This document shows, in pieces, positions 1 to 26,748 of a stretch of 26,748 bases of DNA (the stretch's first letter is position 1; every line of letters begins with the position of its first letter). The stretch is taken from IMG/VR virus record IMGVR_UViG_2609460005_000007. The stretch is one strand, 5' to 3'. A program made the translations under genes and the position numbers. The DNA comes from a virus. Lineage: Duplodnaviria; Heunggongvirae; Uroviricota; Caudoviricetes. A model generated the notes under the pieces. That model saw nothing but the letters and a program-made list of their open reading frames with translations. It was not told where the DNA came from and did not search any database.

Positions 1-97
1 AATCATTGCTCATCGTGTTCTCTTGCCTGAACTAATAAAATATGATAGTACTCATCCTTAATTATTATTGTAACTCAGACATCCATGATTTTTATTA

Positions 98-1123
98 TTA
101 TCCAAATAGTTTTCTTTTATACTTATTTAATTTAAATTTAATGAAGTAAATAAAAGCGTTAAACGTATCACCATTTTTCTTTGCATGTTGATATTTCACT
201 TGATACTGCTTTTCATTCGTGGCTGGAATAAACGCCACATCATTCCAGCAAGAAGCCTGATAAGCCTCATTAAAATACTTCTGGCAGGGATAATTCGTCC
301 AGTCGTTCCAGGGCTTCGTTACGCCAACATAATGAATCAGCTTAGTATCATCGGTAATGGTCTTTTTATAATCTTCATCGCTTTTATTTTTTAACTCATA
401 GTCAATGCCATAAAAGCAATCATAATCGCTGCTAATAAAAATACAATGACCAAAGAACAGAATATTTAAAATATCCTGATCAAGGCATTTATACTTCGTG
501 TGCTGCGGGTCACTTGCCAGCATAGCAATGGCTTTATTCATAAAATCATTTTTCGCCCATGCTTCAAGCTGCAGATATACTACACCGGCGTTGAAATAAT
601 TCCCTGGAAGTCCCTCTATAGCCAGACGCTTCGCTGGTTTTTCCTGCATAAAAGGCACATCTTTAATAACAGCTGCGAACTTATCCTCATCAAAATTAAT
701 ATCAAGCAATCCAGCTAATGAGCCTTTACAGATGACATCAGCATCGATATATAACAGATTTTCAATAGTTTCACTCAAATACTGGAACGCAACTAAACGG
801 AAGAATGTTGCATAAGACCACTGTTTCAGGCTGGGGAAGATATCAATAAAGGCATTGGAGACTTTATAAATTATTACTTCAACGTTAGCATTTTTGCTGG
901 TAAAAGCATTAACACGTTGTAGATAATCTTCATCAATGTAGTCGGTAAAGAGATGAAACTTAACCGCAAGGTCCGGGTTATGCATAACAACTGATTGCAT
1001 AGATACTGCCGCACCAAATAAAAAGTTACGGTCAATACCGTAAGCGATATTTAACACACGATCGGTGTTAGCAATTTCCCCAGAGACAGCGACTTCAGTA
1101 ATACTCTCAGCTAATAAATCCAT
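98..1123 (-). CDS. waaW: GT8-family LPS outer-core glycosyltransferase, WaaW-like (alpha-1,2-galactosyltransferase of R1/R4 core types)
   Basis: 341-aa ORF, paralogous to the two GT8 ORFs at 1851-2846 and 2863-3879 (shared N-terminal YGID(R/K)NFL(F/Y)G block, DAD and DQD motifs, C-terminal HY(V/T)G(x)TKPW). Sits distal to waaY as in R1/R4 waa loci. AT-rich. Ortholog name is inferred from gene order only. Confidence 0.65.
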   Translation of the reverse strand: MDLLAESITEVAVSGEIANTDRVLNIAYGIDRNFLFGAAVSMQSVVMHNPDLAVKFHLFTDYIDEDYLQRVNAFTSKNANVEVIIYKVSNAFIDIFPSLKQWSYATFFRLVAFQYLSETIENLLYIDADVICKGSLAGLLDINFDEDKFAAVIKDVPFMQEKPAKRLAIEGLPGNYFNAGVVYLQLEAWAKNDFMNKAIAMLASDPQHTKYKCLDQDILNILFFGHCIFISSDYDCFYGIDYELKNKSDEDYKKTITDDTKLIHYVGVTKPWNDWTNYPCQKYFNEAYQASCWNDVAFIPATNEKQYQVKYQHAKKNGDTFNAFIYFIKFKLNKYKRKLFG

Positions 1124-1148
1124 GTTGGTTCCGTTTTGACTGTGTGGT

Positions 1149-1841
1149 TTACGCTTTGCCTTTTAATTTTTTAATAAATTTGCGTAGTTTGGTTCTGTAG
1201 ATTACTGAATAGTAGCCATAATCTTTTATTTCGTTGACAATACCCAGGTGACGTTCCATGGCCAGACGATCACGAGCTTTACGCTCTGCCGTACAGCTTT
1301 TACCGGATAGGTCAATTATCCTGACACCATCTTTACTAACGATAAAGTTACCCCGGTGTGGGTCGCCCGATAGCATATTTAAGGCATGCAATTTTTCCAT
1401 TGAAGCCTTAATTTCTGCTTTAACATTTTCTGGAATAATCGGCATATCATTGAGCTCTACGCCCTCGACATACTCGATAAGCATGATAAAAACACTAGCA
1501 TAGTTGAAAATTTTACGCTCAGCCAGAAAATAAAAATCATTAGGAAAAGTAAGACCTGCACTTCTGACACGATCGGTTTCAACGATCAAATTCTGATAGT
1601 AGTCACCTTTTACAAAAGATTTTAAAAAACGTTCATTCCTTTTCGTTTTCGGAGCAAAGACTTTAAAAACATAGCGACCATATTTCGTATCAATCAAAGA
1701 TACTTTGGTATCATCAATATTACGTAATACTTTTACTGTTTTAAAATTATAGGCCAGTATTTCATCAAAGATTTCTTTATATTTATTATCATTATCTTTG
1801 TAATAAAATGAGAAGCCGCGATAACGTATACTTGTAATCAT
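1149..1841 (-). CDS. waaY: LPS core heptose(II) kinase WaaY
   Basis: 230-aa ORF (K-12 WaaY is about 232 aa). Kinase-like catalytic loop DPHRGNFIV and DLSG (DFG-like) motif. Positioned between GT8 genes in the waa operon. Confidence 0.8.
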   Translation of the reverse strand: MITSIRYRGFSFYYKDNDNKYKEIFDEILAYNFKTVKVLRNIDDTKVSLIDTKYGRYVFKVFAPKTKRNERFLKSFVKGDYYQNLIVETDRVRSAGLTFPNDFYFLAERKIFNYASVFIMLIEYVEGVELNDMPIIPENVKAEIKASMEKLHALNMLSGDPHRGNFIVSKDGVRIIDLSGKSCTAERKARDRLAMERHLGIVNEIKDYGYYSVIYRTKLRKFIKKLKGKA

Positions 1842-1850
1842 AAGAGTAAT

Positions 1851-2846
1851 TTATTTCTTAAGCTTGTACTTAATTAATGAAGTTATGCCTTTTATATACT
1901 CACCATGGGCAAACAGATGCTTATATTGTTTCTGCATTTCTGCAACAGTCCGCGCCTCTTTAAGAGGATATTTCTTCCAGGGAGATTGTTCACGCGCGAT
2001 ATTAAAGTATGATGCAGACGGATATCCAGCCCAGCTATGCCATGGTTTAGTTATCCCTGTATAGTGAATCAACACTGTTTTATCGGTAATGGTTTGCTGA
2101 TACTTTCGATGACTACGATCATAAAGTTCGTTTTTCAGGGTATAAATAGTATCAAAATCCTTCGCAAGGTAGATATTATTCATATTAAATGCGATATTCA
2201 ACGCATCCTGATCTAAATATTTAAGAGAGCCATATTTAGTTTCCCCTCGTAAAAGTTTGAGTAAATACGGTGTCAAATTTGCTTCATGCCATTTTTTAAG
2301 ATTGACATAGATAACGCCTGCATTGAAATAACGTCCATTCATTTCGGGAATGTTGAGGCGTTTTGCACATGCCGCCTGAGTACTATCATTGTCAGGAATG
2401 ACCGCAGCAAACTCATCTTTAAATATAATTTCTGTGAGAGGTTTCAGGCTTCCTTTACAAACAACATCGGCATCCAGATACAGCAGTGTGGAAATACTTT
2501 CACTCAGATATTCAAAAGACAATACCCTGAAGTATGTCGCGTACGACCAAAACTGTGACGTCGGCAGATCAGCAAAGTATTTGGGGTCAATTAAATATAC
2601 AATAATTGAGGTATTAAATTGTTTTGCTGTTTCATTAAATGACTTTAAATAATCATCATCCACATAATCAGTGAAAACATGAAAGACAAAATTAATATCT
2701 GAATTATTAATCAAAACGGAAGAAATTGAAACGCCAGCACCATACAAAAAATTCTTATCGATACCGTAGGAAACATTTAGCTCTGGGGCGTTTTCTTTTT
2801 TATTATCTGCTAAATACGAAAACCGTTCTTTTATAAATTCATTCAT
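1851..2846 (-). CDS. waaT: GT8-family LPS outer-core glycosyltransferase, WaaT-like (alpha-1,2-galactosyltransferase)
   Basis: 331-aa ORF with GT8 motifs (YGIDKNFLYG, LDADVVC, LDQDALN). Second gene after waaP, immediately before waaY, as in R1/R4 order. Confidence 0.65.
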   Translation of the reverse strand: MNEFIKERFSYLADNKKENAPELNVSYGIDKNFLYGAGVSISSVLINNSDINFVFHVFTDYVDDDYLKSFNETAKQFNTSIIVYLIDPKYFADLPTSQFWSYATYFRVLSFEYLSESISTLLYLDADVVCKGSLKPLTEIIFKDEFAAVIPDNDSTQAACAKRLNIPEMNGRYFNAGVIYVNLKKWHEANLTPYLLKLLRGETKYGSLKYLDQDALNIAFNMNNIYLAKDFDTIYTLKNELYDRSHRKYQQTITDKTVLIHYTGITKPWHSWAGYPSASYFNIAREQSPWKKYPLKEARTVAEMQKQYKHLFAHGEYIKGITSLIKYKLKK

Positions 2847-2862
2847 TTAACTTTTCTCAATT

Positions 2863-3879
2863 TCATTTTATTATCTTTAAATAAAAATAATAAATATAAT
2901 TCATTATCCCGTTAATTGGTTTGTTTTGTTTAAAATTATGCTTGGCGCAATAACGAGCATAGTTTGAGTTAACTGGCCGCATTAACGGTTCATTTTTCCA
3001 GGGCGATGCTTCTTTGGCTTTGATAAAAGGTTGCGCACTTGGATAACCGGCCCAGTAATGCCAGGGTTTTGTCGGGCCGACATAATGAATTAATACGGTT
3101 TCATCATTAATTGGACAAACAAATGATTTTTTTAATTCATAATTTAAACTAAATTGCGTATTGTATTTAGCATCAATGAATTTAACTTTCCCTAACAGGA
3201 TAAGATTAAGGATATCTTGATCCATATAGGTTAAACGGGAAACGATGGCTTTATCAGCAAGCATCGACATCGCTTTAGCAGAAACGGACTCCTGCGCCCA
3301 CGCTAGTGTATTAATTAACAGGACACCTGAATTAAAGTAACCCTTTTCAAGTTCATTACACTGCAGACTTTGACCCCGTAACGACCACCAGTTAGCATCG
3401 CGTTCAGTAACAACAGCAGCAACGTTATTGGCAAGATCCATTGTTATCAGCGGCTTTAAGTTTCCCTGACAGGCGATATCAGCATCCAGGTAAAGGATCT
3501 TATCTTGTTGATCAATAAAGTAATCTGCAATTACAAAACGGAAATACATGGCAATAGACCAATTTTTGGTCGTCGGTAATGCCTTAAGCCGTTCACAATT
3601 TACTAGATGGATCTGGATACAGGTACGATAGCTTTTCGCCAATTGGGCTAAACGCTGGATATCGGCTTCAGGGATATCATCAATAAAAACGTGGAAAACA
3701 AAACTCACGTCGTTGTTATGTAACAAAACTGACGTGATTGAAACACCACAACCAAAAAGAAAGTTTTTATCAATGCCATAAGCAACATGGAATGATGATG
3801 CCACTGACGCCGCTGGCCTTTCATCGAAGATGATTGTCTTATTGATCATCTCTTGTGGATTAAAATAGTGGGCACTCAT
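2863..3879 (-). CDS. waaO: GT8-family LPS core alpha-1,3-glucosyltransferase WaaO (WaaI)-like
   Basis: 338-aa ORF with GT8 motifs (YGIDKNFLFG, LDADIAC, MDQDILN). Directly downstream of waaP with no waaS/waaB (GT4) between them, unlike K-12. Confidence 0.7.
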   Translation of the reverse strand: MSAHYFNPQEMINKTIIFDERPAASVASSFHVAYGIDKNFLFGCGVSITSVLLHNNDVSFVFHVFIDDIPEADIQRLAQLAKSYRTCIQIHLVNCERLKALPTTKNWSIAMYFRFVIADYFIDQQDKILYLDADIACQGNLKPLITMDLANNVAAVVTERDANWWSLRGQSLQCNELEKGYFNSGVLLINTLAWAQESVSAKAMSMLADKAIVSRLTYMDQDILNLILLGKVKFIDAKYNTQFSLNYELKKSFVCPINDETVLIHYVGPTKPWHYWAGYPSAQPFIKAKEASPWKNEPLMRPVNSNYARYCAKHNFKQNKPINGIMNYIYYFYLKIIK

Positions 3880-3894
3880 ATTTCTCTCCGGAAA

Positions 3895-4692
3895 TTACAA
3901 CGATTTTCGAATCGTTCTTTCCCTGATTTTTGTGGCTTTTGCTTCTGCTTGCGACAGCAGTCCTTGTTCCTGCTTGAGAATGTCTTTAAGCGGGGCGGCA
4001 AAATACACTTTCATAAACCGCCAGATATCCCGCTGAGTCAGGCCGATATTCATTGAAGAAAAATAAAGCCCTATAAGATCTTTATCGCGCCAACGACGTG
4101 GAACGCGCGTGCGAAGCTGCGCCCGGTGTAGGTCAATTACCGAAATTTTTAACTCCTCTTCCTTACCGGAAAAAGGCAAGTGCAGCAGGAAATGACAGAT
4201 ATAACAGTCACGGTGGTTAATGCCCGCAGCATGCATATCGCGCACCATCGTCGCGACACGCTTAATAAGCATACGCTTTACACGAACATCTGGAGGGTTA
4301 GTCGCCCAATCAGCACAGTAATCTTCCAGACTTATGGTTGGTGTCAGATCTTCGGTAATAATAAACGAGGTTCTGGTCAGCGGATTCATGCCTTTTTCGC
4401 CGAATGCCACCCCATACATAGTATCAACGCCGACATCCCGCAGTCGATGAATCGCATTCCATTCGCGGTCTGCGCCTAATACTGGCATCCGCAATGAGAG
4501 TAAATTTTTGATTATCTCTTTCAGGGTCGTGCCGCGATGCCATTTGAGAAAATAGCTTTTGCCCGCCATTTCAAAGCGCAGAGTACGGCGAGTTTCCAGT
4601 TCACGAAATACCTCACCCTGCAAGGTTTTAACTTCCTCAAAAGGATCTTTGCCGCGCCATAACGTGGCAAACGGCTCTTTAAGTTCAACCAT
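3895..4692 (-). CDS. waaP: LPS core heptose(I) kinase WaaP
   Basis: ORF 3895-4701; translation from the internal Met ([21 protein letters not shown]...) gives the 265-aa WaaP recalled for K-12. Kinase motif [11 protein letters not shown] and IDLHR. Start overlaps the waaG stop. Confidence 0.88.
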
Positions 4693-5809
4693 CCAGACCA
4701 CCCGTTATGATATCCGCCGCTTTCTCTGGCAGACTGTATAAATCTTGTGTATCAGCATAATGTCGCGCATTTTCCGCCCAGGCCTGGCGCAATGAAGATT
4801 GCGTTAACGCTTTGCGTAAAATCTCATTCAATGTTTCCTGGCGGAATGGCTCAGCAATAGCCTCGCCGCAATTGGCGTCGACAATATAATGCGCATAGCC
4901 ACAAACGGCTGTTGTTAGTACCGGTAATCCTGCAGTAATCGCTTCCAGCAGCACAATTCCCGCCGCTTCCTGGTAGGCAGGATGCAGTAATAAATCCGCC
5001 GCCGCCATTAATTCCGAGACATCATTGCGCCCCGAGAAAAAGTGAACATTACTGCGCACGCCGCGTTTTTCTGCCAGCGCCTCAAATTTTCGCGGTTTAT
5101 CCTGCCCAACAACATATAGCAATGTGTTGTGGCGCAGCGAATCCGGTAACGAAGCAAGTGCTTCAATGGAACGATCGACACCTTTACGCGTGAAGTCTGA
5201 ACCGACCTGCAACAATAAATATTGTTGTTCGGTTATTCCATTCTTCTTACGGAATATTTCACGGCTATTGGCTGGCTGCTGGCTATATTTACGATCAGGA
5301 TAAATCCCCGGTGGCAGAATATGAAAACGCTCCGCTTCAGTCTGATAATGTTTCTGGAAATCGGCGATTTGCTTATCTGTCAGCATCAGCAGCTGTGTCG
5401 GCTTGCCCTGTTCGAAGGTTGCCCGCTCAAAGGCGGCATAATGGCGATAACGTGACGTCAGGCGATAGAAAAAGCCTTTCTCCTGCGCTACTTTCTCGGC
5501 ATAACAAACATCAGCGGCATAATAAACGTCCAGCCCCGGCATTTTGTTGAATCCAACGACTTTATCGACGGGATGTTCGCGTAAATGTTTTTGCACCCAG
5601 GTAAAATACTCCGCATTGCGCCCGTGATTGGTACGCGATTTAACCGGCACTTTGATCAGTTCAAATACATCAGGGCATTCGCCTTCCCACGACTGGGTAT
5701 AAACCCGAACATGATGACCTCGGGCGGCGACTGTCTGAGCAATACGCATAAAATCGCGCTGCAAACCGCCAAAGGGAAAATATTTATATAAACAAAAAGC
5801 AACGATCAT
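4685..5809 (-). CDS. waaG: LPS core alpha-1,3-glucosyltransferase I WaaG (GT4)
   Basis: 374-aa [23 protein letters not shown]..., same length and near-identical to K-12 WaaG as recalled. ATGA overlap with the waaQ stop. Confidence 0.93.
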
Positions 5810-6864
5810 AACGACGTACCTGTCGTGGAGGAGGGCAGTAATTTATCGACAGCAGCAATGACATCTGCCGCCGGAATAACCGAAAGATACATCTCATTTC
5901 GGTCACGCTGATCGCGCGTTGGCATTTCCCGGTAATCTCCCGCCCAGAATTGAATCATGTTATTTGACCAGGGACGCCAGAAAATATGATCTGTTGCGCC
6001 AAACAGCGATATCAGCGGCGTATTAACTGCAGCGGCAATATGCGCCGGTGCGGAATCAACGCCAATAAACAGCTGCGCATGATCGATTAACGCACCAAGT
6101 TCCGGGAAGGTCACCTTTCCAGCCAGCGCCGTTACTGGTGGCGTCTGGCATCCCTGCGCAATTTCATTGACGCAGGCCAGATCGTCTTTATCTGGGCCGG
6201 ACGTCAGAACGACTTCATAACCACGAGCATGTAAGGCATCAATCACAGCGGAAAACTTGGCGTTGTCCCAGCATTTGAAGATTTGCCGCGCCGTAGGTTG
6301 GATAACCACATAATTTTGTCCAACACCAGCGTGATCAAGTTCGCGACGCATACGTTTCCAGCTTGCAGGCGGGTAACTCATGGTTGTCTGCTTCACCAAC
6401 GAATCAAGTCCCAATGGTGTCAGCACGGATAAGTTACTTTCCACCACATTTCCACCCTGCAACGGCACCAAATGGGTGAAACTTTTACGCCAAAAAGCAG
6501 ACTGCCGATGATGATAATCCTGGGAAATTTTCACACGAGCATTTAATAAGCGAACCAGTATAGCAACCATCCATTGATCGGTAAGATTGACGATAAGGTC
6601 ATACTTATTGGCACGTAATACCTTGATGAGATGAAAAAAGTTGGCAATTTTTTCTGAGGCTTTTGCTTTTTTATTTTTTATGCCGTAGAGCGCGTTAATC
6701 TCTGGATTTTCAGACAGGATCGGGATGGTGTCCTGATAAAGCAGCACATCGATTTTTGCGTCAGGGTAATTTTTTTTCAGCGAACTAATGACGGGAGTAG
6801 TTAATAACATATCCCCATGAAAACGCATCTTAATGAGCAAAATTCTTCGAAATGGCTTATCCAC
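5806..6864 (-). CDS. waaQ: LPS core heptosyltransferase III WaaQ (GT9)
   Basis: 352-aa ORF. N-terminus RILLIKMRFHGDMLLTTPV resembles the heptosyltransferase N-terminal motif. First gene of the operon, downstream of the ops element. The start could instead be the internal Met 12 codons in. Confidence 0.85.
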   Translation of the reverse strand: MDKPFRRILLIKMRFHGDMLLTTPVISSLKKNYPDAKIDVLLYQDTIPILSENPEINALYGIKNKKAKASEKIANFFHLIKVLRANKYDLIVNLTDQWMVAILVRLLNARVKISQDYHHRQSAFWRKSFTHLVPLQGGNVVESNLSVLTPLGLDSLVKQTTMSYPPASWKRMRRELDHAGVGQNYVVIQPTARQIFKCWDNAKFSAVIDALHARGYEVVLTSGPDKDDLACVNEIAQGCQTPPVTALAGKVTFPELGALIDHAQLFIGVDSAPAHIAAAVNTPLISLFGATDHIFWRPWSNNMIQFWAGDYREMPTRDQRDRNEMYLSVIPAADVIAAVDKLLPSSTTGTSL

Positions 6865-6913
6865 AAGTAACTCTTTTTGTTGAGATTATCCGATTAAGGT
6901 GAAGCAGAAAAAG

Positions 6914-6925
6914 CACGCTACCGCC
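6914..6925 (-). promoter_or_regulatory. ops element (RfaH-dependent antitermination signal, core of the JUMPstart sequence) in the waaQ operon leader
   Basis: Minus strand reads GGCGGTAGCGTG, an exact match to the ops 12-mer, followed by CTTTTTCTGCTTCAC. Lies about 50 nt upstream of the waaQ start. Confidence 0.75.
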
Positions 6926-7276
6926 CCAGGCTCAACAGCTACCTGAATACTGATACCGCACTGATATTGACGCGCTAGTGTATCACTTCTTTCGCGGCAA
7001 TCCGACCCGAATGATTTTTAAGCACATTGTTGATTTTCAATAAAGAAATCAATCAAATAAAATCATTAGCAACCATATTCTTTCACTGTTGCTCTGCGAT
7101 TCCTTCCTGCACGTACAGCAGAAATCAATGAATCGCATAAAAATACAAAAAAAGTATAGATGTTCAGCAAGAATTGGCGGGTAAATTGCTATTTAAGTCA
7201 AAAACGGGAAAAGTAATGGTAAAGCCACAGCTAAATACATAGAATCCCCAGCACATCCATAAGTCAGCTATTTACT

Positions 7277-9041
<1,765 letters not shown>

Positions 9042-9048
9042 CGTTTAT

Positions 9049-9070
9049 GCCGGATGGTATGCCATCCGGC
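9049..9070. terminator. GC-rich hairpin between convergent coaD and mutM (possible bidirectional terminator or REP-like element)
   Basis: GCCGGATGG-(tatg)-CCATCCGGC perfect 9-bp stem. No strong U-tract on either side. Confidence 0.3.
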
Positions 9071-9079
9071 GCGCATGAA

Positions 9080-9889
9080 TTACTTCTGGCACTGCCGACA
9101 ATAAAACGTTGCCCGCTGCGCATGTTTAGTCGCCACAATCGGCGTACCGCACACCCGACACGGCTCGCCTTTTCGCCCGTAAACCTGCAATTCCTGAGCG
9201 AAATAGCCCGGTTTACCATCACTTTGCAGAAAATCTTTCAGCGTTGTACCACCCTGCTCAATCGAACGCAGCAACACCGCTTTAATCACCCGAGCTAACA
9301 ATTCACACTCTGCCAGCGACAGTGATGACGCCAGCCGATCCGGATGGATCCCCGCCGCAAACAGTGATTCGCTGGCATAGATATTCCCTACCCCTACCAC
9401 CAGCTTGTTATCCATCAGCCACGGTTTAATCGCCGTTTTTTTCTTCGCGCACTTCTGATGCAGATACTCACCATTGAAATCGTCGCTAAGCGGCTCCGGT
9501 CCAAGATGGGTCAGCACATTATGCCCTTCCAGCTCTTTGGTCCACAGCCAGGCACCAAAGCGGCGCGGATCGGTGTAGCGCAGCACTTTGCCGTTGCTCA
9601 TCACCAAATCCACATGGTCATGCTTTTCAGGGGGAAGTTCTTCTGGAAGGATGCGCAGGCTGCCAGACATCCCTAAATGAATGATAATCCAGCCCTCAGG
9701 CAGCTCCAGCAGCAGATATTTAGCCCGCCGCTGCACGCTAAGCACTGGTTGGTCGCTTAAACGGTAGATCTCTTCTGAAACCGGCCAGCGCAAGCGTCCG
9801 TTGCGCACCACTGCATGAAGAATGGTTGCACCAACGAGATGCGGTTCTATGCCGCGGCGGCTGGTTTCAACTTCGGGTAATTCAGGCAT
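9080..9889 (-). CDS. mutM: formamidopyrimidine-DNA glycosylase MutM/Fpg
   Basis: 269-aa ORF with N-terminal MPELPEVE (catalytic Pro2/Glu3) and C-terminal zinc finger CRVCGTPI...FYCRQCQ. Confidence 0.95.
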
Positions 9890-9940
9890 AGCATCTCCAG
9901 GAATGAACAGATGCAGTCAATATGGGGGCAAGCAGATAAC

Positions 9941-9969
9941 AAAAAACCCCGCCGGAGCGAGGTTTTTTG
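9941..9969 (-). terminator. intrinsic terminator downstream of rpmG
   Basis: On the minus-strand RNA: CCUCGC-uccg-GCGGGG (one G-U wobble) followed by U6. Lies between the rpmG stop and the mutM start. Confidence 0.5.
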
Positions 9970-9986
9970 TTACATCAAAGCGAGAA

Positions 9987-10157
<171 letters not shown>

Positions 10158-10174
10158 TTATTTCCTCTAAGTAC

Positions 10175-10432
<258 letters not shown>

Positions 10433-10627
10433 TTAGCTCGAGCTTCGTATGGGGTATTGGCGCCTCGTCAGGCTTTACAGCCCGGTCATCGCAGTTCTAT
10501 GTGAACTCTCGATTGCCAGGCCCAAATGCCAAACCCGAGATTCTCAAAGGTGGCGTAGTATACGCTGACTCAGCGATGTGCTCAAGTCCCGAACAGACAA
10601 AGATCCCGAAGGATCGCGCATAGCGGG

Positions 10628-11303
10628 TTAAATCCAGCCGCGTTCGGCAAAAGAAACATACTCTCCACGCCCAATCACGATATGGTCGAGCACGCGTAAA
10701 TCCATGAACTGACAACTCTTTATTATCCGTTCAGTAATGAGTTTATCCGCTTTACTGGGTTCAGCACAACCCGAAGGGTGATTATGTGCAAGGATCAGCG
10801 CCGAGGCGTTTATTTTTATCGCTTCGCGGATAATTTCCCGAGGATGGACTTCAACATGGTTTAGCGTGCCGGAAAAAAGACGGCTATGCGTTATAACCCG
10901 GTGTTGTGAGTCGAGAAAGATCACCATAAAGATCTCCCGCTCCTCACCCGTGAGCTGGCTTTGTAAAAATTCCCGCGTCATCTCCGGGCTGAGTAAAGGG
11001 CTTTCTTCACGCATCCGCACGTTGTAGTAACGTCGCGCCAGTTCAGCAATCCCCCTTTAACTGGGCAAATTTCGCCACGCCAATTCCATGAACGCCACTA
11101 AATTGTTCATATTCAGAGGTTAACAAGCCATAAAGAGAGCCGAAATTCTCCAGCATCTCTTTTGCCAGGGTTAATACATCTTTACCGCGCGTTCCGGTAC
11201 GCAGAAATAGCGCCAGCAGCTCGACATCCGTTAAGGCGCTAATACCAAACTTCAGCATTTTTTCGCGCGGCATCAACAGCTGTGAATTGTTTTTCACCTT
11301 CAC
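10628..11303 (-). pseudogene. yicR: radC/yicR (UPF0758 JAB/MPN-domain protein) interrupted by a +1 frameshift in a 5-nt homopolymer
   Basis: N-terminal ORF 11043-11303 (...[11 protein letters not shown]) and C-terminal ORF 10628-11020 (...RMREESPLL...HNHPSG...). They join into one about 222-aa YicR if one C is removed from the CCCCC run at 11051-11055 (plus strand), restoring ...[21 protein letters not shown]. Confidence 0.75.
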
Positions 11304-11468
11304 CTCCTTTGTGGTGCTCGCATCCTGTCATAGCCGTTTCGTTAAATCGACGGCCAGTTTTCAATCCTGGAAAGCGCCTCGCAAAGTGAATCTCAGGTGA
11401 AGGCACGACAACAAAAGTATTGTGATAAAATCGCCAACTTCTGGTGTCACCCTACAGGAAAAATCATC

Positions 11469-12689
11469 ATGAGCCTGGCCGGTAAAAAAATCGTTCTCGG
11501 CGTTAGCGGCGGTATTGCTGCCTATAAAACCCCTGAACTGGTGCGTCGTTTGCGCGATCGCGGGGCCGACGTCCGCGTAGCCATGACCGAAGCGGCAAAA
11601 GCCTTTATCACCCCACTTAGCTTGCAGGCGGTTTCTGGTTATCCCGTTTCCGACAGTCTGCTGGACCCGGCAGCCGAAGCCGCTATGGGCCATATTGAGC
11701 TGGGTAAATGGGCTGATTTAGTGATTCTCGCCCCTGCCACGGCAGATTTGATTGCCCGTATTGCTGCCGGAATGGCGAATGACCTGGTATCGACGATTTG
11801 TCTGGCTACACCTGCGCCTGTAGCCGTGCTCCCCGCCATGAACCAGCAGATGTACCGTGCCGCTGCCACGCAGCATAATTTAGAGGTGCTTGCTTCCCGT
11901 GGTTTGCTCATCTGGGGGCCAGACAGTGGCAGTCAGGCTTGTGGTGATATCGGTCCTGGGCGAATGCTCGATCCGTTAACCATTGTGGATATGGCGGTGG
12001 CGCATTTTTCGCCCGTCAACGACCTGAAACATCTGAACATTATGATTACCGCCGGTCCGACGCGTGAACCGCTCGATCCGGTGCGTTATATCTCTAATCA
12101 CAGCTCCGGCAAGATGGGTTTTGCTATCGCCGCCGCCGCTGCCCGTCGTGGCGCGAACGTCACGCTGGTATCAGGTCCGGTTTCACTACCGACGCCACCG
12201 TTTGTTAAACGTGTTGATGTGATGACTGCGCTGGAAATGGAAGCCGCCGTGAATGCTTCTGTACAGCAGCAAAATATTTTTATCGGTTGCGCCGCCGTGG
12301 CGGATTATCGCGCAGCTACCGTGGCCCCAGAGAAAATCAAAAAGCAGGCCACGCAGGGTGATGAATTAACAATAAAAATGGTTAAAAACCCCGATATCGT
12401 CGCAGGCGTTGCCGCACTAAAAGACCATCGACCCTACGTCGTTGGATTTGCCGCCGAAACAAATAATGTGGAAGAATACGCCCGGCAAAAACGTATCCGT
12501 AAAAACCTTGATCTGATCTGCGCGAACGATGTTTCCCAGCCAACTCAAGGATTTAACAGCGACAACAACGCATTACACCTTTTCTGGCAGGACGGAGATA
12601 AAGTCTTACCGCTTGAGCGCAAAGAGCTCCTTGGCCAATTATTACTCGACGAGATCGTGACCCGTTATGATGAAAAAAATCGACGTTAA
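11469..12689 (+). CDS. coaBC: bifunctional phosphopantothenoylcysteine decarboxylase / phosphopantothenate-cysteine ligase CoaBC (Dfp)
   Basis: 406-aa product from [20 protein letters not shown]... (flavoprotein fold N-terminus, CoaB C-terminus). The ORF-track upstream extension is rejected. Confidence 0.95.
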
Positions 12690-13125
12690 GATTCTGGACC
12701 CGCGCGTTGGGAAGGAATTTCCGCTCCCGACTTATGCCACCTCTGGCTCTGCCGGACTTGACCTGCGTGCCTGTCTCGACGACGCCGTAGAACTGGCTCC
12801 GGGTGACACTACGCTGGTTCCGACCGGGCTGGCGATTCATATTGCCGATCCTTCACTGGCGGCAATGATGCTGCCGCGCTCCGGATTGGGACATAAGCAC
12901 GGTATCGTGCTTGGTAACCTGGTAGGATTGATCGATTCTGACTATCAGGGCCAGTTGATGATTTCCGTGTGGAACCGTGGTCAGGACAGCTTCACCATTC
13001 AACCTGGCGAACGCATCGCCCAGATGATTTTTGTTCCGGTAGTACAGGCTGAATTTAATCTGGTGGAAGATTTCGACGCCACCGACCGCGGTGAAGGCGG
13101 CTTTGGTCACTCTGGTCGTCAGTAA
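12667..13125 (+). CDS. dut: dUTP diphosphatase (dUTPase)
   Basis: 152-aa [38 protein letters not shown]... Start overlaps the coaBC 3' end by 23 nt. Confidence 0.95.
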
Positions 13126-13231
13126 CACATACGCATCCGAATAACGTCATAACATAGCCGCAAACATTTCGTTTGCGGTCATAGCGTGGGTGCCGCCTGG
13201 CAAGTGCTTATTTTCAGGGGTATTTTGTAAC

Positions 13232-13828
13232 ATGGCAGAAAAACAAACTGCGAAAAGGAACCGTCGCGAGGAAATACTTCAGTCTCTGGCGCTGATGCTG
13301 GAATCCAGCGATGGAAGCCAACGTATCACGACGGCAAAACTGGCCGCCTCTGTCGGCGTTTCCGAAGCGGCACTGTATCGCCACTTCCCCAGTAAGACCC
13401 GCATGTTCGATAGCCTGATTGAGTTTATCGAAGATAGCCTGATTACTCGCATCAACCTGATTCTGAAAGATGAGAAAGACACCACAGCGCGCCTGCGTCT
13501 GATTGTGTTGCTGCTTCTCGGTTTTGGTGAGCGTAATCCTGGCCTGACCCGCATCCTCACTGGTCATGCGCTGATGTTTGAACAGGATCGCCTGCAAGGG
13601 CGTATCAACCAGCTGTTCGAGCGTATTGAAGCGCAGCTGCGCCAGGTATTGCGTGAAAAGAGAATGCGTGAGGGTGAAGGTTACACCACCGATGAAACCC
13701 TGCTGGCAAGCCAGATCCTGGCCTTCTGTGAAGGTATGCTGTCACGTTTTGTCCGCAGCGAATTTAAATACCGCCCGACGGATGATTTTGACGCCCGCTG
13801 GCCGCTAATTGCCGCGCAGTTGCAGTAA
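13232..13828 (+). CDS. slmA: nucleoid occlusion factor SlmA (TetR family)
   Basis: 198-aa product from [24 protein letters not shown]... with a TetR-type HTH ([20 protein letters not shown]). Confidence 0.92.
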
Positions 13829-13834
13829 TATGAC

Positions 13835-13864
13835 GCCGGATGACTTTTCATCCGGCGAGTTTCT
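13835..13864. terminator. bidirectional intrinsic terminator between convergent slmA and pyrE
   Basis: GCCGGATGA-(cttt)-TCATCCGGC perfect 9-bp stem followed by GAGTTTCTTT on the plus strand. Confidence 0.5.
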
Positions 13865-14506
13865 TTAAACGCCAAACTCTTCGCGATAGGCCTTAACCGC
13901 CGCCAGATGTTCCGCCATTTCCGGCTTCTCTTCCAGATAGGCAATCAGATCTTTCAGGGTGATGATAGAGATCACTTTGCAGTTGTAATCACGCTCAACT
14001 TCCTGAATCGCCGAAATCTCGCCGCGCCCCCGTTCCTGACGATCAAGCGAAATCAATACGCCAGCAAGCGTCGCGCCATTAGCCTGAATAATCTCCATCG
14101 ATTCGCGAATCGCCGTTCCGGCGGTGATCACATCATCTACCAGCATTACGCGTCCTTGTAACGCGCTACCAACCAGATTGCCGCCTTCACCGTGGTCTTT
14201 TGCCTCTTTGCGGTTAAAGCAGTACGGCAGGTCAAGGTCATGATGCTCCGCCAGCGCCACGGCGGTAGTGGTCGCAATCGGGATCCCTTTGTAAGCAGGG
14301 CCAAACAGCAGATCGAACTCAATGCCAGAATCCACCAATGCTTCAGCGTAAAAACGGCCTAACAGTGCCAGGTCGCGCCCGGTATTAAACAGCCCGGCGT
14401 TGAAGAAATAGGGGCTTTTGCGCCCGGATTTCAGCGTAAACTCGCCAAACTTTAACACCTGCTTGCTAAGCGCAAATTCAATAAACTGGCGCTGATATGG
14501 TTTCAT
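13865..14506 (-). CDS. pyrE: orotate phosphoribosyltransferase PyrE
   Basis: 213-aa product from [38 protein letters not shown]... with the PRPP-binding motif [14 protein letters not shown]. Confidence 0.95.
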
Positions 14507-23255: not shown

Positions 23256-23945
23256 ATGAACCCAACACGTTATGCACGCATCTGCGAAATGCTCGCCAGG
23301 CGGCAGCCTGATCTGACCGTCTGCATGGAGCAGGTCCACAAACCTCATAACGTTTCTGCGATTATTCGTACCGCAGATGCCGTTGGCGTACATGAAGTTC
23401 ACGCCGTCTGGCCTGGTAGCCGCATGCGCACCATGGCTTCGGCAGCGGCGGGTAGTAACAGCTGGGTACAGGTGAAAACACACCGCACCATTGGCGATGC
23501 CGTCGCTCATCTCAAAGGCCAGGGCATGCAGATTCTGGCAACCCATCTTTCTGATAACGCTGTCGATTTCCGCGAAATTGATTACACTCGCCCGACCTGC
23601 ATTTTGATGGGACAGGAGAAAACGGGCATCACGCAGGAAGCATTGGCCCTGGCGGATCAGGACATCATCATTCCGATGATCGGCATGGTGCAGTCGCTGA
23701 ATGTTTCCGTTGCCTCAGCCCTCATTCTTTACGAAGCCCAGCGTCAGCGGCAAAATGCAGGCATGTACCTGCGTGAAAACAGCATGTTGCCGGAAGCAGA
23801 GCAACAACGCCTGTTGTTTGAAGGCGGCTATCCGGTGCTGGCGAAAGTCGCAAAACGCAAAGGCCTGCCTTATCCCCACGTCAATCAGCAAGGCGAGATC
23901 GAAGCTGATGCCGACTGGTGGGCTACTATGCAGGCTGCAGGGTAA
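23256..23945 (+). CDS. trmH: tRNA (guanosine-18 2'-O)-methyltransferase TrmH (SpoU)
   Basis: 229-aa ORF with SPOUT motifs (NVSAIIRTADAVG, ILMGQEKTG, SLNVSVA). Starts 7 nt after the spoT stop. Confidence 0.92.
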   Translation: MNPTRYARICEMLARRQPDLTVCMEQVHKPHNVSAIIRTADAVGVHEVHAVWPGSRMRTMASAAAGSNSWVQVKTHRTIGDAVAHLKGQGMQILATHLSDNAVDFREIDYTRPTCILMGQEKTGITQEALALADQDIIIPMIGMVQSLNVSVASALILYEAQRQRQNAGMYLRENSMLPEAEQQRLLFEGGYPVLAKVAKRKGLPYPHVNQQGEIEADADWWATMQAAG

Positions 23946-23950
23946 GTGCC

Positions 23951-26032
23951 ATGAAAGGTCGCCTGTTAGATGCTGTCCCACTCAGTTCCCTAACGGGCGT
24001 TGGCGCAGCACTTAGTAACAAACTGGCGAAAATCAACCTGCATACCGTGCAGGATCTACTCTTACACCTTCCCCTGCGCTACGAAGATCGCACCCATCTC
24101 TACCCCATCGGAGAACTACTGCCGGGCGTTTATGCCACGGTGGAAGGCGAAGTGCTGAACTGCAATATCTCCTTCGGCGGTCGGCGGATGATGACCTGCC
24201 AGATCAGCGACGGTTCCGGCATCCTCACCATGCGCTTTTTCAATTTCAGCGCGGCAATGAAAAATAGCCTGGCGACGGGCCGCCGTGTACTGGCTTATGG
24301 CGAAGCAAAGCGCGGTAAATATGGTGCGGAGATGATCCACCCGGAATACCGCGTGCAGGGCGATCTCAGCACGCCAGAATTACAGGAAACGCTCACGCCG
24401 GTTTATCCAACAACGGAAGGCGTAAAGCAGGCCACGCTGCGTAAATTAACCGACCAGGCGCTGGATCTGCTCGACACCTGCGCCATTGAAGAACTCCTGC
24501 CGCCGGAACTGTCACAAGGAATGATGACGCTACCGGAAGCGTTGCGCACTTTGCACCGCCCGCCACCGACGCTACAGCTTAGCGATCTGGAAACCGGGCA
24601 GCATCCGGCGCAACGTCGTCTGATTCTGGAAGAACTGCTGGCGCACAACCTCAGCATGTTAGCCTTACGTGCCGGAGCACAGCGTTTTCATGCCCAGCCG
24701 CTGAGCGCCAATGACACGCTGAAAAATAAACTCCTCGCCGCCTTACCGTTCAAGCCAACGGGCGCACAGGCACGCGTAGTGGCGGAGATCGAGCGCGATA
24801 TGGCGCTGGATGTGCCGATGATGCGTCTGGTGCAGGGCGATGTAGGTTCCGGTAAAACGCTGGTCGCCGCCCTCGCCGCGTTGCGTGCGATTGCCCACGG
24901 CAAACAGGTAGCATTGATGGCACCAACCGAATTACTCGCCGAGCAGCACGCCAATAACTTCCGCAACTGGTTTGCACCGCTCGGTATCGAAGTGGGCTGG
25001 CTCGCCGGTAAGCAGAAAGGTAAAGCACGGCTGGCACAGCAGGAAGCCATCGCCAGCGGTCAGGTGCAGATGATTGTCGGTACACACGCCATCTTCCAGG
25101 AACAGGTGCAGTTTAACGGCCTGGCGCTGGTGATTATCGACGAACAGCATCGTTTTGGCGTGCATCAGCGTCTGGCATTGTGGGAGAAAGGCCAGCAGCA
25201 GGGCTTCCATCCGCATCAGTTGATCATGACCGCCACGCCGATCCCCCGCACGCTGGCAATGACTGCGTATGCCGATCTCGATACCTCGGTGATAGATGAG
25301 CTGCCGCCAGGCCGCACGCCAGTGACTACGGTCGCTATTCCTGATACCCGCCGTACCGACATCATTGACCGCGTGCGCCACGCCTGCATAACTGAAGGTC
25401 GTCAGGCATACTGGGTTTGTACGTTGATTGAAGAGTCGGAATTGCTGGAAGCGCAGGCGGCGGAAGCTACCTGGGAAGAGTTGAAACTGGCGCTACCAGA
25501 GTTGAACGTTGGCCTGGTACACGGGCGGATGAAACCTGTCGAGAAACAGGCGGTGATGGCGTCGTTTAAACAAGGTGAGCTACACCTGCTGGTTGCCACA
25601 ACCGTTATTGAAGTCGGCGTTGATGTGCCTAACGCCAGTCTGATGATTATCGAAAACCCGGAGCGTCTGGGTCTGGCGCAGTTACACCAGCTTCGCGGGC
25701 GTGTAGGTCGTGGTGCGGTGGCTTCTCACTGCGTGCTGCTCTACAAAACGCCGCTCTCCAAAACCGCGCAAATTCGGCTGCAAGTGCTGCGCGACAGCAA
25801 CGACGGTTTTGTGATTGCACAGAAAGACTTAGAGATTCGTGGACCGGGTGAACTGTTAGGTACGCGTCAGACGGGTAATGCTGAGTTTAAAGTGGCGGAT
25901 TTACTGCGCGATCAGGCGATGATCCCGGAAGTTCAGCGCCTGGCGCGACATATTCACGAACGTTACCCACAACAAGCAAAAGCCCTGATAGAACGCTGGA
26001 TGCCGGAGACGGAACGTTACTCCAACGCATGA
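23951..26032 (+). CDS. recG: ATP-dependent DNA helicase RecG
   Basis: 693-aa product from MKGRLLDAVPLSSLTGVGAALSNKLAKINLH... with Walker A GDVGSGKT, DEQH box and helicase motifs. Starts 6 nt after the trmH stop. Track ORF start trimmed. Confidence 0.95.
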   Translation: MKGRLLDAVPLSSLTGVGAALSNKLAKINLHTVQDLLLHLPLRYEDRTHLYPIGELLPGVYATVEGEVLNCNISFGGRRMMTCQISDGSGILTMRFFNFSAAMKNSLATGRRVLAYGEAKRGKYGAEMIHPEYRVQGDLSTPELQETLTPVYPTTEGVKQATLRKLTDQALDLLDTCAIEELLPPELSQGMMTLPEALRTLHRPPPTLQLSDLETGQHPAQRRLILEELLAHNLSMLALRAGAQRFHAQPLSANDTLKNKLLAALPFKPTGAQARVVAEIERDMALDVPMMRLVQGDVGSGKTLVAALAALRAIAHGKQVALMAPTELLAEQHANNFRNWFAPLGIEVGWLAGKQKGKARLAQQEAIASGQVQMIVGTHAIFQEQVQFNGLALVIIDEQHRFGVHQRLALWEKGQQQGFHPHQLIMTATPIPRTLAMTAYADLDTSVIDELPPGRTPVTTVAIPDTRRTDIIDRVRHACITEGRQAYWVCTLIEESELLEAQAAEATWEELKLALPELNVGLVHGRMKPVEKQAVMASFKQGELHLLVATTVIEVGVDVPNASLMIIENPERLGLAQLHQLRGRVGRGAVASHCVLLYKTPLSKTAQIRLQVLRDSNDGFVIAQKDLEIRGPGELLGTRQTGNAEFKVADLLRDQAMIPEVQRLARHIHERYPQQAKALIERWMPETERYSNA

Positions 26033-26664
26033 CCAGACTCATCACAAGACAAGTCACGCAGTAAATCTTCAATCTGGATAGTGAGGATATCCATTGCCTC
26101 ATACGCATCCTGTGCAATTCGCGCCGCCATTGCGCCTTCCGGTTCACCACGCAGAATTTCAGCCGCTGCCTGTACGCCAGCCACAATCATTTCAGGTGTT
26201 AACATTTGGCGAAGAAAAGCGCGATTATCAGAGGACCAGCCATCTTTATGGCCTAATGGATGCCCCCAGCCTATCCATTCTTGCGACCATAACGGATTGG
26301 CTTCTATGGGATAAATTAGATGCGCGGCATACTGAATAGCACACACCGCTTTTCCTGGCGTATCCAGCGCCCACCAGCGCGACCAGAGAGAATGAATTAA
26401 CGGCGCGGCCCCACCCAGAGTATTGAACACCGCCAGCCAGCAAAGAACGTTATTGAAACCACGCTCGTTATCCATACGCTGCAACGCGGTGTCCAGTAAA
26501 AATTGCCGTACCTGCTGGCGTTGGGAAGCATTCATCATCTCCTGCCAGAGATAGGGCCGACACAATGCCTTCATTAAGGATTCTTCGAAGTGATCACCAT
26601 AACCGCCAGCTAAAACGGTTTCATGCCATTGCGCCAGGCAGAGCGGAAACAGATAGCGAAACAA
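26017..26664 (-). CDS. hypothetical soluble Trp-rich protein of unrecognised family; N-terminus uncertain (frame is open up to 26710)
   Basis: 215-aa ORF on the minus strand with host-like codon usage. No in-frame ATG or GTG before codon 31; the track start is TTG. Converges on recG and overlaps its last 16 nt. Occupies the position where K-12 has gltS, but the product is charged and soluble-looking. Confidence 0.4.
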   Translation of the reverse strand: MFRYLFPLCLAQWHETVLAGGYGDHFEESLMKALCRPYLWQEMMNASQRQQVRQFLLDTALQRMDNERGFNNVLCWLAVFNTLGGAAPLIHSLWSRWWALDTPGKAVCAIQYAAHLIYPIEANPLWSQEWIGWGHPLGHKDGWSSDNRAFLRQMLTPEMIVAGVQAAAEILRGEPEGAMAARIAQDAYEAMDILTIQIEDLLRDLSCDESGHALE

Positions 26665-26748
26665 CTCTATTTGGGGGAACCGCAGAATTCGGAAAAAATC
26701 GTACGCTAAGCTAACGGTGTTCTCGTGACAGCTCTTTGACTAGGCTTT

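Follow-up and report, generated by a model that had tools for sequence, protein, structure and literature searches.

A Tn1721-truncated accessory gene at the 3' end of recG in Escherichia coli and a possible toxin-immunity role for its intact product

The recG 3' end and the Tn1721 junction

The DNA studied here is a 26,748-nucleotide (nt) stretch held as the Caudoviricetes record IMGVR_UViG_2609460005_000007 (the whole stretch is called the window), and the element in question is an open reading frame (ORF) near its right end that converges on recG. A sequence-only reading had reported that this ORF overlaps the final 16 nt of recG, that its frame stays open as far as a stop at 26711-26713 and that it holds neither ATG nor GTG upstream of an internal Met, all of which we confirmed from the sequence and the ORF list (Table 1). 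Our comparisons show that the ORF is a pseudogene, the 3' fragment of a conserved accessory gene truncated by the transposon Tn1721.

Table 1. Features at the recG 3' end of the window, and the Rhs C-terminal domain found beside distant homologues
Feature	Position	Strand	Details and basis
recG, ATP-dependent DNA helicase	23951..26032	+	RefSeq annotation of L001 and L002, where this stretch is near-identical; ORF list
ORF convergent with recG	26017..26664	-	215 amino acids (aa) counted from TTG; ORF list and sequence
3' fragment of a 288-codon accessory gene (WP_000747337.1)	26017..26672	-	Codons 71-288 and stop; pseudogene
TATTT, left copy of the 5-bp target-site duplication	26668..26672	.	Comparison of the intact gene with SW07164
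38-bp terminal inverted repeat of Tn1721	26673..26710	+	GGGGGAACCGCAGAATTCGGAAAAAATCGTACGCTAAG
First 76 nt of Tn1721 (Tn3 family, TnAs1-type transposase, tet(A))	26673..26748	+	Remainder beyond the window
TAG closing the frame of the ORF	26711..26713	-	Inside the transposon, just past the inverted repeat; sequence
107-aa Rhs C-terminal domain	L024 6636-6986; L067 6676-6996; L069 1432-1752		After PxxxxDPxGL

Aligned by megablast to 5426 complete E. coli genomes, positions 25900-26748 gave 100% matches that end at 26673 in virtually all genomes with the region, about 1900 in number, and in one alone, that of strain SW07164 from Galapagos wastewater, does the match extend to 26748; the last 76 nt of the window account for 870 plasmid matches. 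The gene order in SW07164 is recG, the 3' fragment, mcp, tnpR, tnpA (TnAs1 family), tetR(A), tet(A), genes for a DMT transporter and a cysteine hydrolase, a partial tnpA, the 5' fragment, gltS and xanP, and RefSeq annotates its two gene fragments as 'incomplete; missing N-terminus' (3') and 'missing C-terminus' (5'). The transposon measures ~11.1 kb there, and the insert is 100% identical across 11,052 nt to many plasmid copies, one of which is annotated as Tn1721. At its left junction AACTC TATTT runs into GGGGGAACCGCAGAATTCGGAAAAAATCGTACGCTAAG, and at its right junction CTTAGCGTACGATTTTTTCCGAATTCTGCGGGCTCCCC runs into TATTT GCATCGG, while the intact gene reads AACTC TATTT GCATCGG across the same site, with TATTT present once. 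The right-end repeat of SW07164 (L001) is an inverted near-copy of the left 38-bp repeat; together with the 5-bp duplication, the 38-bp inverted repeats are the signature of Tn3-family transposition.

Set against Tn1721 as it is known, nothing about this copy is unusual. The 38-bp terminal repeat (GGGG...TAAG) is present in the window and its right-end counterpart in L001; TATTT flanks both sides in SW07164, whereas the window holds the left copy alone; and the mcp-tnpR-tnpA-tetR-tetA-partial tnpA set is seen in the sister genome, outside the window. What distinguishes the present case is a chromosomal insertion with only 76 nt inside the window. The window is 99.98% identical to SW07164 from 16258 onward only. 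Upstream of dinD, SW07164 carries an island (L001 1-5360) of IS1, IS3, a PerC-family regulator and hypothetical genes that has no counterpart in the window, which matches strain RM10466 through the dinD stretch, with yicC adjoining dinD. The window thus comes from a different, closely related strain that shares the Tn1721 junction, and because it is not SW07164 itself we infer the complete transposon and the 5' fragment beyond 26748 for the strain of the window.

In the strain of the window Tn1721 transposed into codon 70/71 of the gene, with the cut between 26672 and 26673, and duplicated TATTT. The insertion deprived the remnant of the ATG, of codons 1-70 and of transcription driven from gltS, a loss that makes it a pseudogene. 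It is because of this insertion that the ORF has no start codon, and the frame is open from 26673 to 26710 because the Tn1721 inverted repeat happens to read in frame. Between 26017 and 26673 there are 0 differences from the intact gene of RM10466, in which the TTG taken as the ORF 'start' encodes Leu74; the normal ATG lies 210 nt farther upstream in 1912 genomes. The cut also takes away helices 1-3 of the 14 predicted for the protein and the conserved WExEFD motif, and it is very unlikely that the truncated fragment is functional. As a feature of the window the junction is ordinary: in the sister genome, RefSeq already records a pseudogene for the fragment and a TnAs1/Tn1721 element for the insert.

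In the ORF list recG begins with the GTG at 23918, whereas RefSeq places the start 33 nt farther downstream, at 23951; the former is probably just an upstream in-frame GTG.

The intact gene and its distribution

In RM10466 and BL21(DE3) the intact gene has 867 nt, encodes 288 aa and lies between recG and gltS. Its ATG is 2 nt past the gltS stop codon and its 3' end is 16 nt inside the convergent recG. RefSeq names the product 'hypothetical protein' (WP_000747337.1 and WP_000747329.1), and it is labelled hypothetical or uncharacterised in every source. A 2026 paper speaks of 'a variable intervening gene' between recG and gltS, which it does not characterise (PMC13185298); searches of the literature by locus tag or accession gave no relevant paper on the gene.

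With the 851 nt of the gene that lie outside recG as the query, we found it in 1918 of the 5426 complete E. coli genomes (35%), BL21(DE3) and O157:H7 among the carriers, and 1873 of these copies are at least 99% identical. All E. coli copies are chromosomal, and they are single-copy save in four genomes with two matching places. A tblastn search of plasmids and phages returned three E. coli records only and no phage matches; the three, filed as plasmids, look like misfiled chromosomal sequence (one has gltS under the match and two measure 1.0-4.8 Mb). The sequence-only reading had seen here the likeliest site of a strain-specific or undescribed element. Strain specificity holds for the transposon junction, found in one of the 5426 genomes, and fails for the ORF, whose gene is in 35% of them. 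Nor is the gene undescribed, as it is already annotated as a hypothetical protein and occupies the same position in Salmonella and other Enterobacteriaceae. The same reading had named a widely conserved, annotated core gene as the finding that would overturn it, and this largely describes what we found, though at 35% of genomes the gene is accessory and not core.

K-12 lacks the gene, as do the 65% of E. coli that have gltS without it. A comparison with the K-12 recG-gltS junction had been proposed for locating the breakpoint. The flanking genes and their order are identical, and in place of the gene K-12 has a 168-bp spacer, REP (repetitive extragenic palindromic)- and terminator/hairpin-like, with no similarity to the gene. 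With no gene remnant in the spacer, the K-12 state is not a simple internal deletion scar. The alleles diverge from within the last four codons of recG, which read TCC AAC GCA TGA in the gene type (window 26018-26032) and TCG AAT GCG TAA in the K-12 type (L003 5278-5292), all of these changes being synonymous; the replacement breakpoint therefore falls inside recG. The expectation of gltS at this position was right insofar as the ORF is not gltS, and wrong insofar as gltS was thought to have been replaced, given that it lies beyond the gene and the transposon in the sister genome.

Protein family, predicted fold and selection

The product had been described as soluble, Trp-rich and of no recognisable family, and this description stands. 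The native part of the ORF translation (218 aa) contains 10 Trp (4.6%), with a grand average of hydropathy (GRAVY) of -0.10 and an isoelectric point of 4.9. Over 19-residue segments the Kyte-Doolittle hydropathy of the intact 288-aa protein peaks at 1.48, a value at which membrane spans are not expected. Searches of the 288-aa protein against Pfam, NCBIfam, PADLOC and PDB sequences returned nothing significant, the best matches being a chance NCBIfam hit (E = 0.16) and a PDB sequence (E = 0.58). Tested for GltS (PF03616), the gene product gave no Pfam match, a GRAVY of -0.21 and no stretch resembling a membrane span.

A word-indexed homologue search returned 33 relatives only. In the exhaustive search we used an enteric-centred profile with the Salmonella orthologue as lead sequence and clusters at 50% identity, which gave 444 clusters at E <= 1e-3 and 113 at E <= 1e-30. 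Nearly all members are single-domain proteins of 280-320 aa, and their conserved core comprises WExQFD, LQP[DE]LFxYLFPxCLxxW and several invariant Trp residues. A Pfam scan of 49 diverse members yielded only isolated matches at E = 0.03 or worse, and the family profile found nothing in the PDB; the family is uncharacterised, unnamed and without a Pfam model. The 90%-identity cluster that contains the 288-aa protein has a GltS representative and mixes GltS with this protein among its 9280 members, a clustering artefact that may stem from fused gene calls, and it is because of this merger that the E. coli protein was hidden from the first homologue search.

AlphaFold2, run on the Salmonella orthologue with an 18-sequence alignment, returned a confident model of 14 helices and no strands (predicted local distance difference test 87.2, predicted template modelling score 0.87). 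The protein is thus predicted to be a soluble cytoplasmic alpha-solenoid of an unnamed family, and HEAT/ARM/TOG alpha-solenoid proteins may be among the closest known systems.

Orthologues at the 3' end of recG were found in Salmonella, Klebsiella sp., two Superficieibacter species, Pseudocitrobacter, Intestinirhabdus, Enterobacter sp. and one metagenome enteric. Between E. coli and Salmonella (L002 12118-12984 vs L004 6001-6849) pN is 0.19 and pS 0.75, and the Superficieibacter pair has a dN/dS of 0.19, which show that the gene is real and under purifying selection. Its dN in the E. coli-Salmonella pair is 0.22, with synonymous sites saturated, whereas the flanking recG, gltS, trmH and xanP have dN of 0.02-0.04 and dS of 0.76-1.17; the gene dN is 5-10 times that of the flanks. 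The enteric orthologues are 48-70% identical as proteins vs 92-94% for RecG. The locus is either older than its surroundings or has been exchanged independently of them; alleles may have been replaced, trans-species polymorphism may be at work, or codon bias may simply be weak.

Gene neighbourhoods and the Rhs link

Among distant homologues we found a repeated link to Rhs proteins. At three independent loci, the genes for P0166, P0191 and P0189 each start 2-12 nt downstream of one whose product is of the Rhs type (DUF6531, RHS repeats, YD shell, RHS core). The locus of P0191 lies within a VgrG cluster. All three Rhs proteins carry the PxxxxDPxGL cleavage motif followed by a common 107-aa C-terminal domain (AFNPI...GGGTHGLVNRIREQILG...VPK.CR), for which we found no Pfam match and no plasmid homologue. 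It is a candidate new toxin domain paired with the protein family. The family members that follow these Rhs proteins are ~50% identical to each other, and co-variation with a specific toxin C-terminal domain was seen in this distant clade only. The Rhs protein upstream of a fourth member, P0190 (L070), ends in another C-terminal domain and is followed first by a 224-aa gene of its own; P0190 comes after that gene, in the typical orphan-immunity position. P0166 matches the enteric-centred profile at E = 1.5e-27 over nearly its full length, and the E. coli protein, compared directly with P0191 by BLASTP, shows 25% identity over 240 aa (E = 4e-17); on these scores we regard the homology of the Rhs-linked clade to the E. 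coli protein as solid.

A profile scan of genome contigs with a narrower alignment gave 12 loci. In Enterobacteriaceae the gene consistently lies next to recG and convergent with it, and gltS adjoins the gene only in E. coli, Salmonella and the metagenome enteric. Superficieibacter, Klebsiella sp., Pseudocitrobacter, Intestinirhabdus and Enterobacter sp. have the gene at the recG 3' end without an adjacent gltS, and in Leminorella it is a single-gene insert beside gapA. When 103 neighbouring proteins were scanned together against Pfam, no partner recurred; the top counts were three for ketoacyl synthase and two each for RlaP, NADAR and muramidase.

Several individual contexts are of the conflict type. 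Among members closer than the Rhs-linked clade, one has a barstar gene 3 nt downstream, and NADAR or Macro-NADAR genes lie directly upstream on the same strand in two metagenome loci (L050 1664-2527; L054 1531-2652). NADAR and Macro-NADAR are enzymes that reverse ADP-ribosylation, and their adjacency could reflect a second type of functional linkage or a shared array of immunity genes. RlaP with an R2K ATP-grasp was also found beside the family, as were PNKP and a TIR protein. The Cupriavidus member belongs to a run of short uncharacterised genes (DUF6869, DUF6714) next to McrBC, and in a Zoogloeaceae metagenome-assembled genome a gene for a retropepsin-like protease lies upstream of the family member and overlaps it.

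Discussion

Taken jointly, our results are best explained by an accessory gene that was cut by Tn1721 and whose intact protein is most likely an orphan toxin-immunity protein, an account that we consider rather probable as a whole. We give about an even chance to the more specific proposal, drawn from homologues, that the intact protein blocks an Rhs-type toxin domain coming from neighbouring bacteria. It would bind and neutralise the C-terminal toxin domain of an Rhs-type effector delivered by the type VI secretion system (T6SS) and injected by competitors, and the immunity gene would have been retained without a neighbouring toxin gene. This reading is favoured because homologues show the canonical order of toxin and immunity genes, because some neighbourhoods are of the conflict type, and because the gene is patchily distributed and diverges fast. 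The likeness to Rhs/T6SS immunity proteins (RhsI) lies in position and in character: distant homologues hold the slot right after the Rhs toxin domain and the orphan slot one gene on, and the 288-aa protein is small, cytoplasmic, non-enzymatic-looking, patchy, fast-evolving and inserted as a single gene between core genes. Patchy distribution and raised divergence relative to the flanks are traits that it has in common with Rhs immunity proteins. Unlike RhsI, the copies in E. coli and other enterics stand without a toxin beside them and the family has no Pfam, NCBIfam or PDB relative; the paired 107-aa domain is itself unnamed.

A number of observations weigh against an immunity role. No toxin gene adjoins the E. 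coli or other enteric copies, whose neighbours are housekeeping genes. The place immediately downstream of a toxin gene is held by P0166, P0191 and P0189 and not by the gene of the window, whose upstream neighbour is gltS (here Tn1721); with no toxin beside it, the E. coli gene could be an orphan member only. The Rhs linkage was seen solely in a distant clade with ~21-25% identity, so that function may have diverged, and most of the ~22 other contexts have no toxin and no repeated partner. The family-wide motifs WExQFD and LQP[DE]LFxYLFPxCL would be explained by a conserved ligand or target no less well than by a toxin interface under co-evolution, and a search of plasmids turned up no homologue of the 107-aa domain. 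As for the Tn1721 part of the account, the complete transposon is visible only in the sister genome, outside the window.

The neighbourhoods also bear on a different role in biological conflict: the protein might assist phage defence, act like an antitoxin or work with enzymes of ADP-ribose metabolism or RNA repair. NADAR/Macro-NADAR at two loci, RlaP with R2K ATP-grasp, PNKP, the TIR-domain protein and McrBC would all suit such a role, as would motifs that run through the whole family and suggest a common target. We nevertheless hold it to be unlikely, given that PADLOC gave no match, no partner is repeated, the family was not found in phages or plasmids, and the sole tight, repeated and co-varying linkage that we found is to Rhs C-terminal toxin domains. 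A role specific to the glutamate transporter GltS, as a functional partner co-transcribed and translationally coupled with it, is suggested by the shared strand and by a start 2 nt past the gltS stop in E. coli and 0-2 nt past it in Salmonella and the metagenome enteric. This restriction of the adjacency to a few enterics argues against it; five enteric genera keep the gene at recG without an adjoining gltS, 65% of E. coli have gltS without the gene, and outside the enterics the gene never adjoins one for a Glt_symporter, which leaves the partnership improbable.

Although at least seven enteric genera have the gene at the 3' end of recG, a role related to RecG or to DNA repair strikes us as very improbable: the convergent orientation means no co-transcription, shared descent explains the conserved position, the Leminorella copy lies beside gapA, the non-enteric members are unlinked to recG and most E. 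coli do without the gene. The absence of a start had been attributed in the sequence-only reading either to a non-canonical start or to a fragment left by a rearrangement. The latter was correct, the rearrangement being the Tn1721 insertion. The other option, in which the gene is intact, starts at a non-canonical codon and marks a strain-specific element not described before, would agree with a frame open without ATG or GTG, yet it is refuted by the ordinary ATG of the intact gene and by the identity of the upstream open frame as the Tn1721 inverted repeat. A frame artefact over a gltS homologue, which had been offered as a further way for the ORF to be spurious, is excluded along with it by the lack of similarity to gltS, the purifying selection and the confident fold model.

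Returning to the immunity proposal, a wider form of it would make the family (444 clusters) an unnamed and widespread group of immunity proteins whose partner is the unnamed 107-aa Rhs toxin domain, with a third of E. coli, and Salmonella, keeping a protective orphan copy against T6SS/Rhs attack. We put this forward tentatively, as somewhat less than an even prospect. If it were true, diversifying or trans-species selection would lie behind the unusually deep divergence at this locus. The Rhs link is a cheap, concrete and testable hypothesis that also flags an undescribed Rhs toxin domain, and the gene on which it bears is carried by about one third of E. coli, laboratory and pathogenic strains included, and still has neither name nor family. 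For annotation and for the tracking of resistance genes it is useful that the start-less ORF is explained as the product of a chromosomal tetracycline-resistance transposon.

Other features of the window

Positions 1-14000 of the window are, by megablast, an ordinary core region with the waa lipopolysaccharide-core cluster (waaA, waaG, rfaQ, waaO), coaBC and 13 further annotated genes, and they are 100% identical to several pig, panda and other isolates. At least 80% of this part is covered in only 2526 of the 5426 genomes, probably on account of the variable waa core type.

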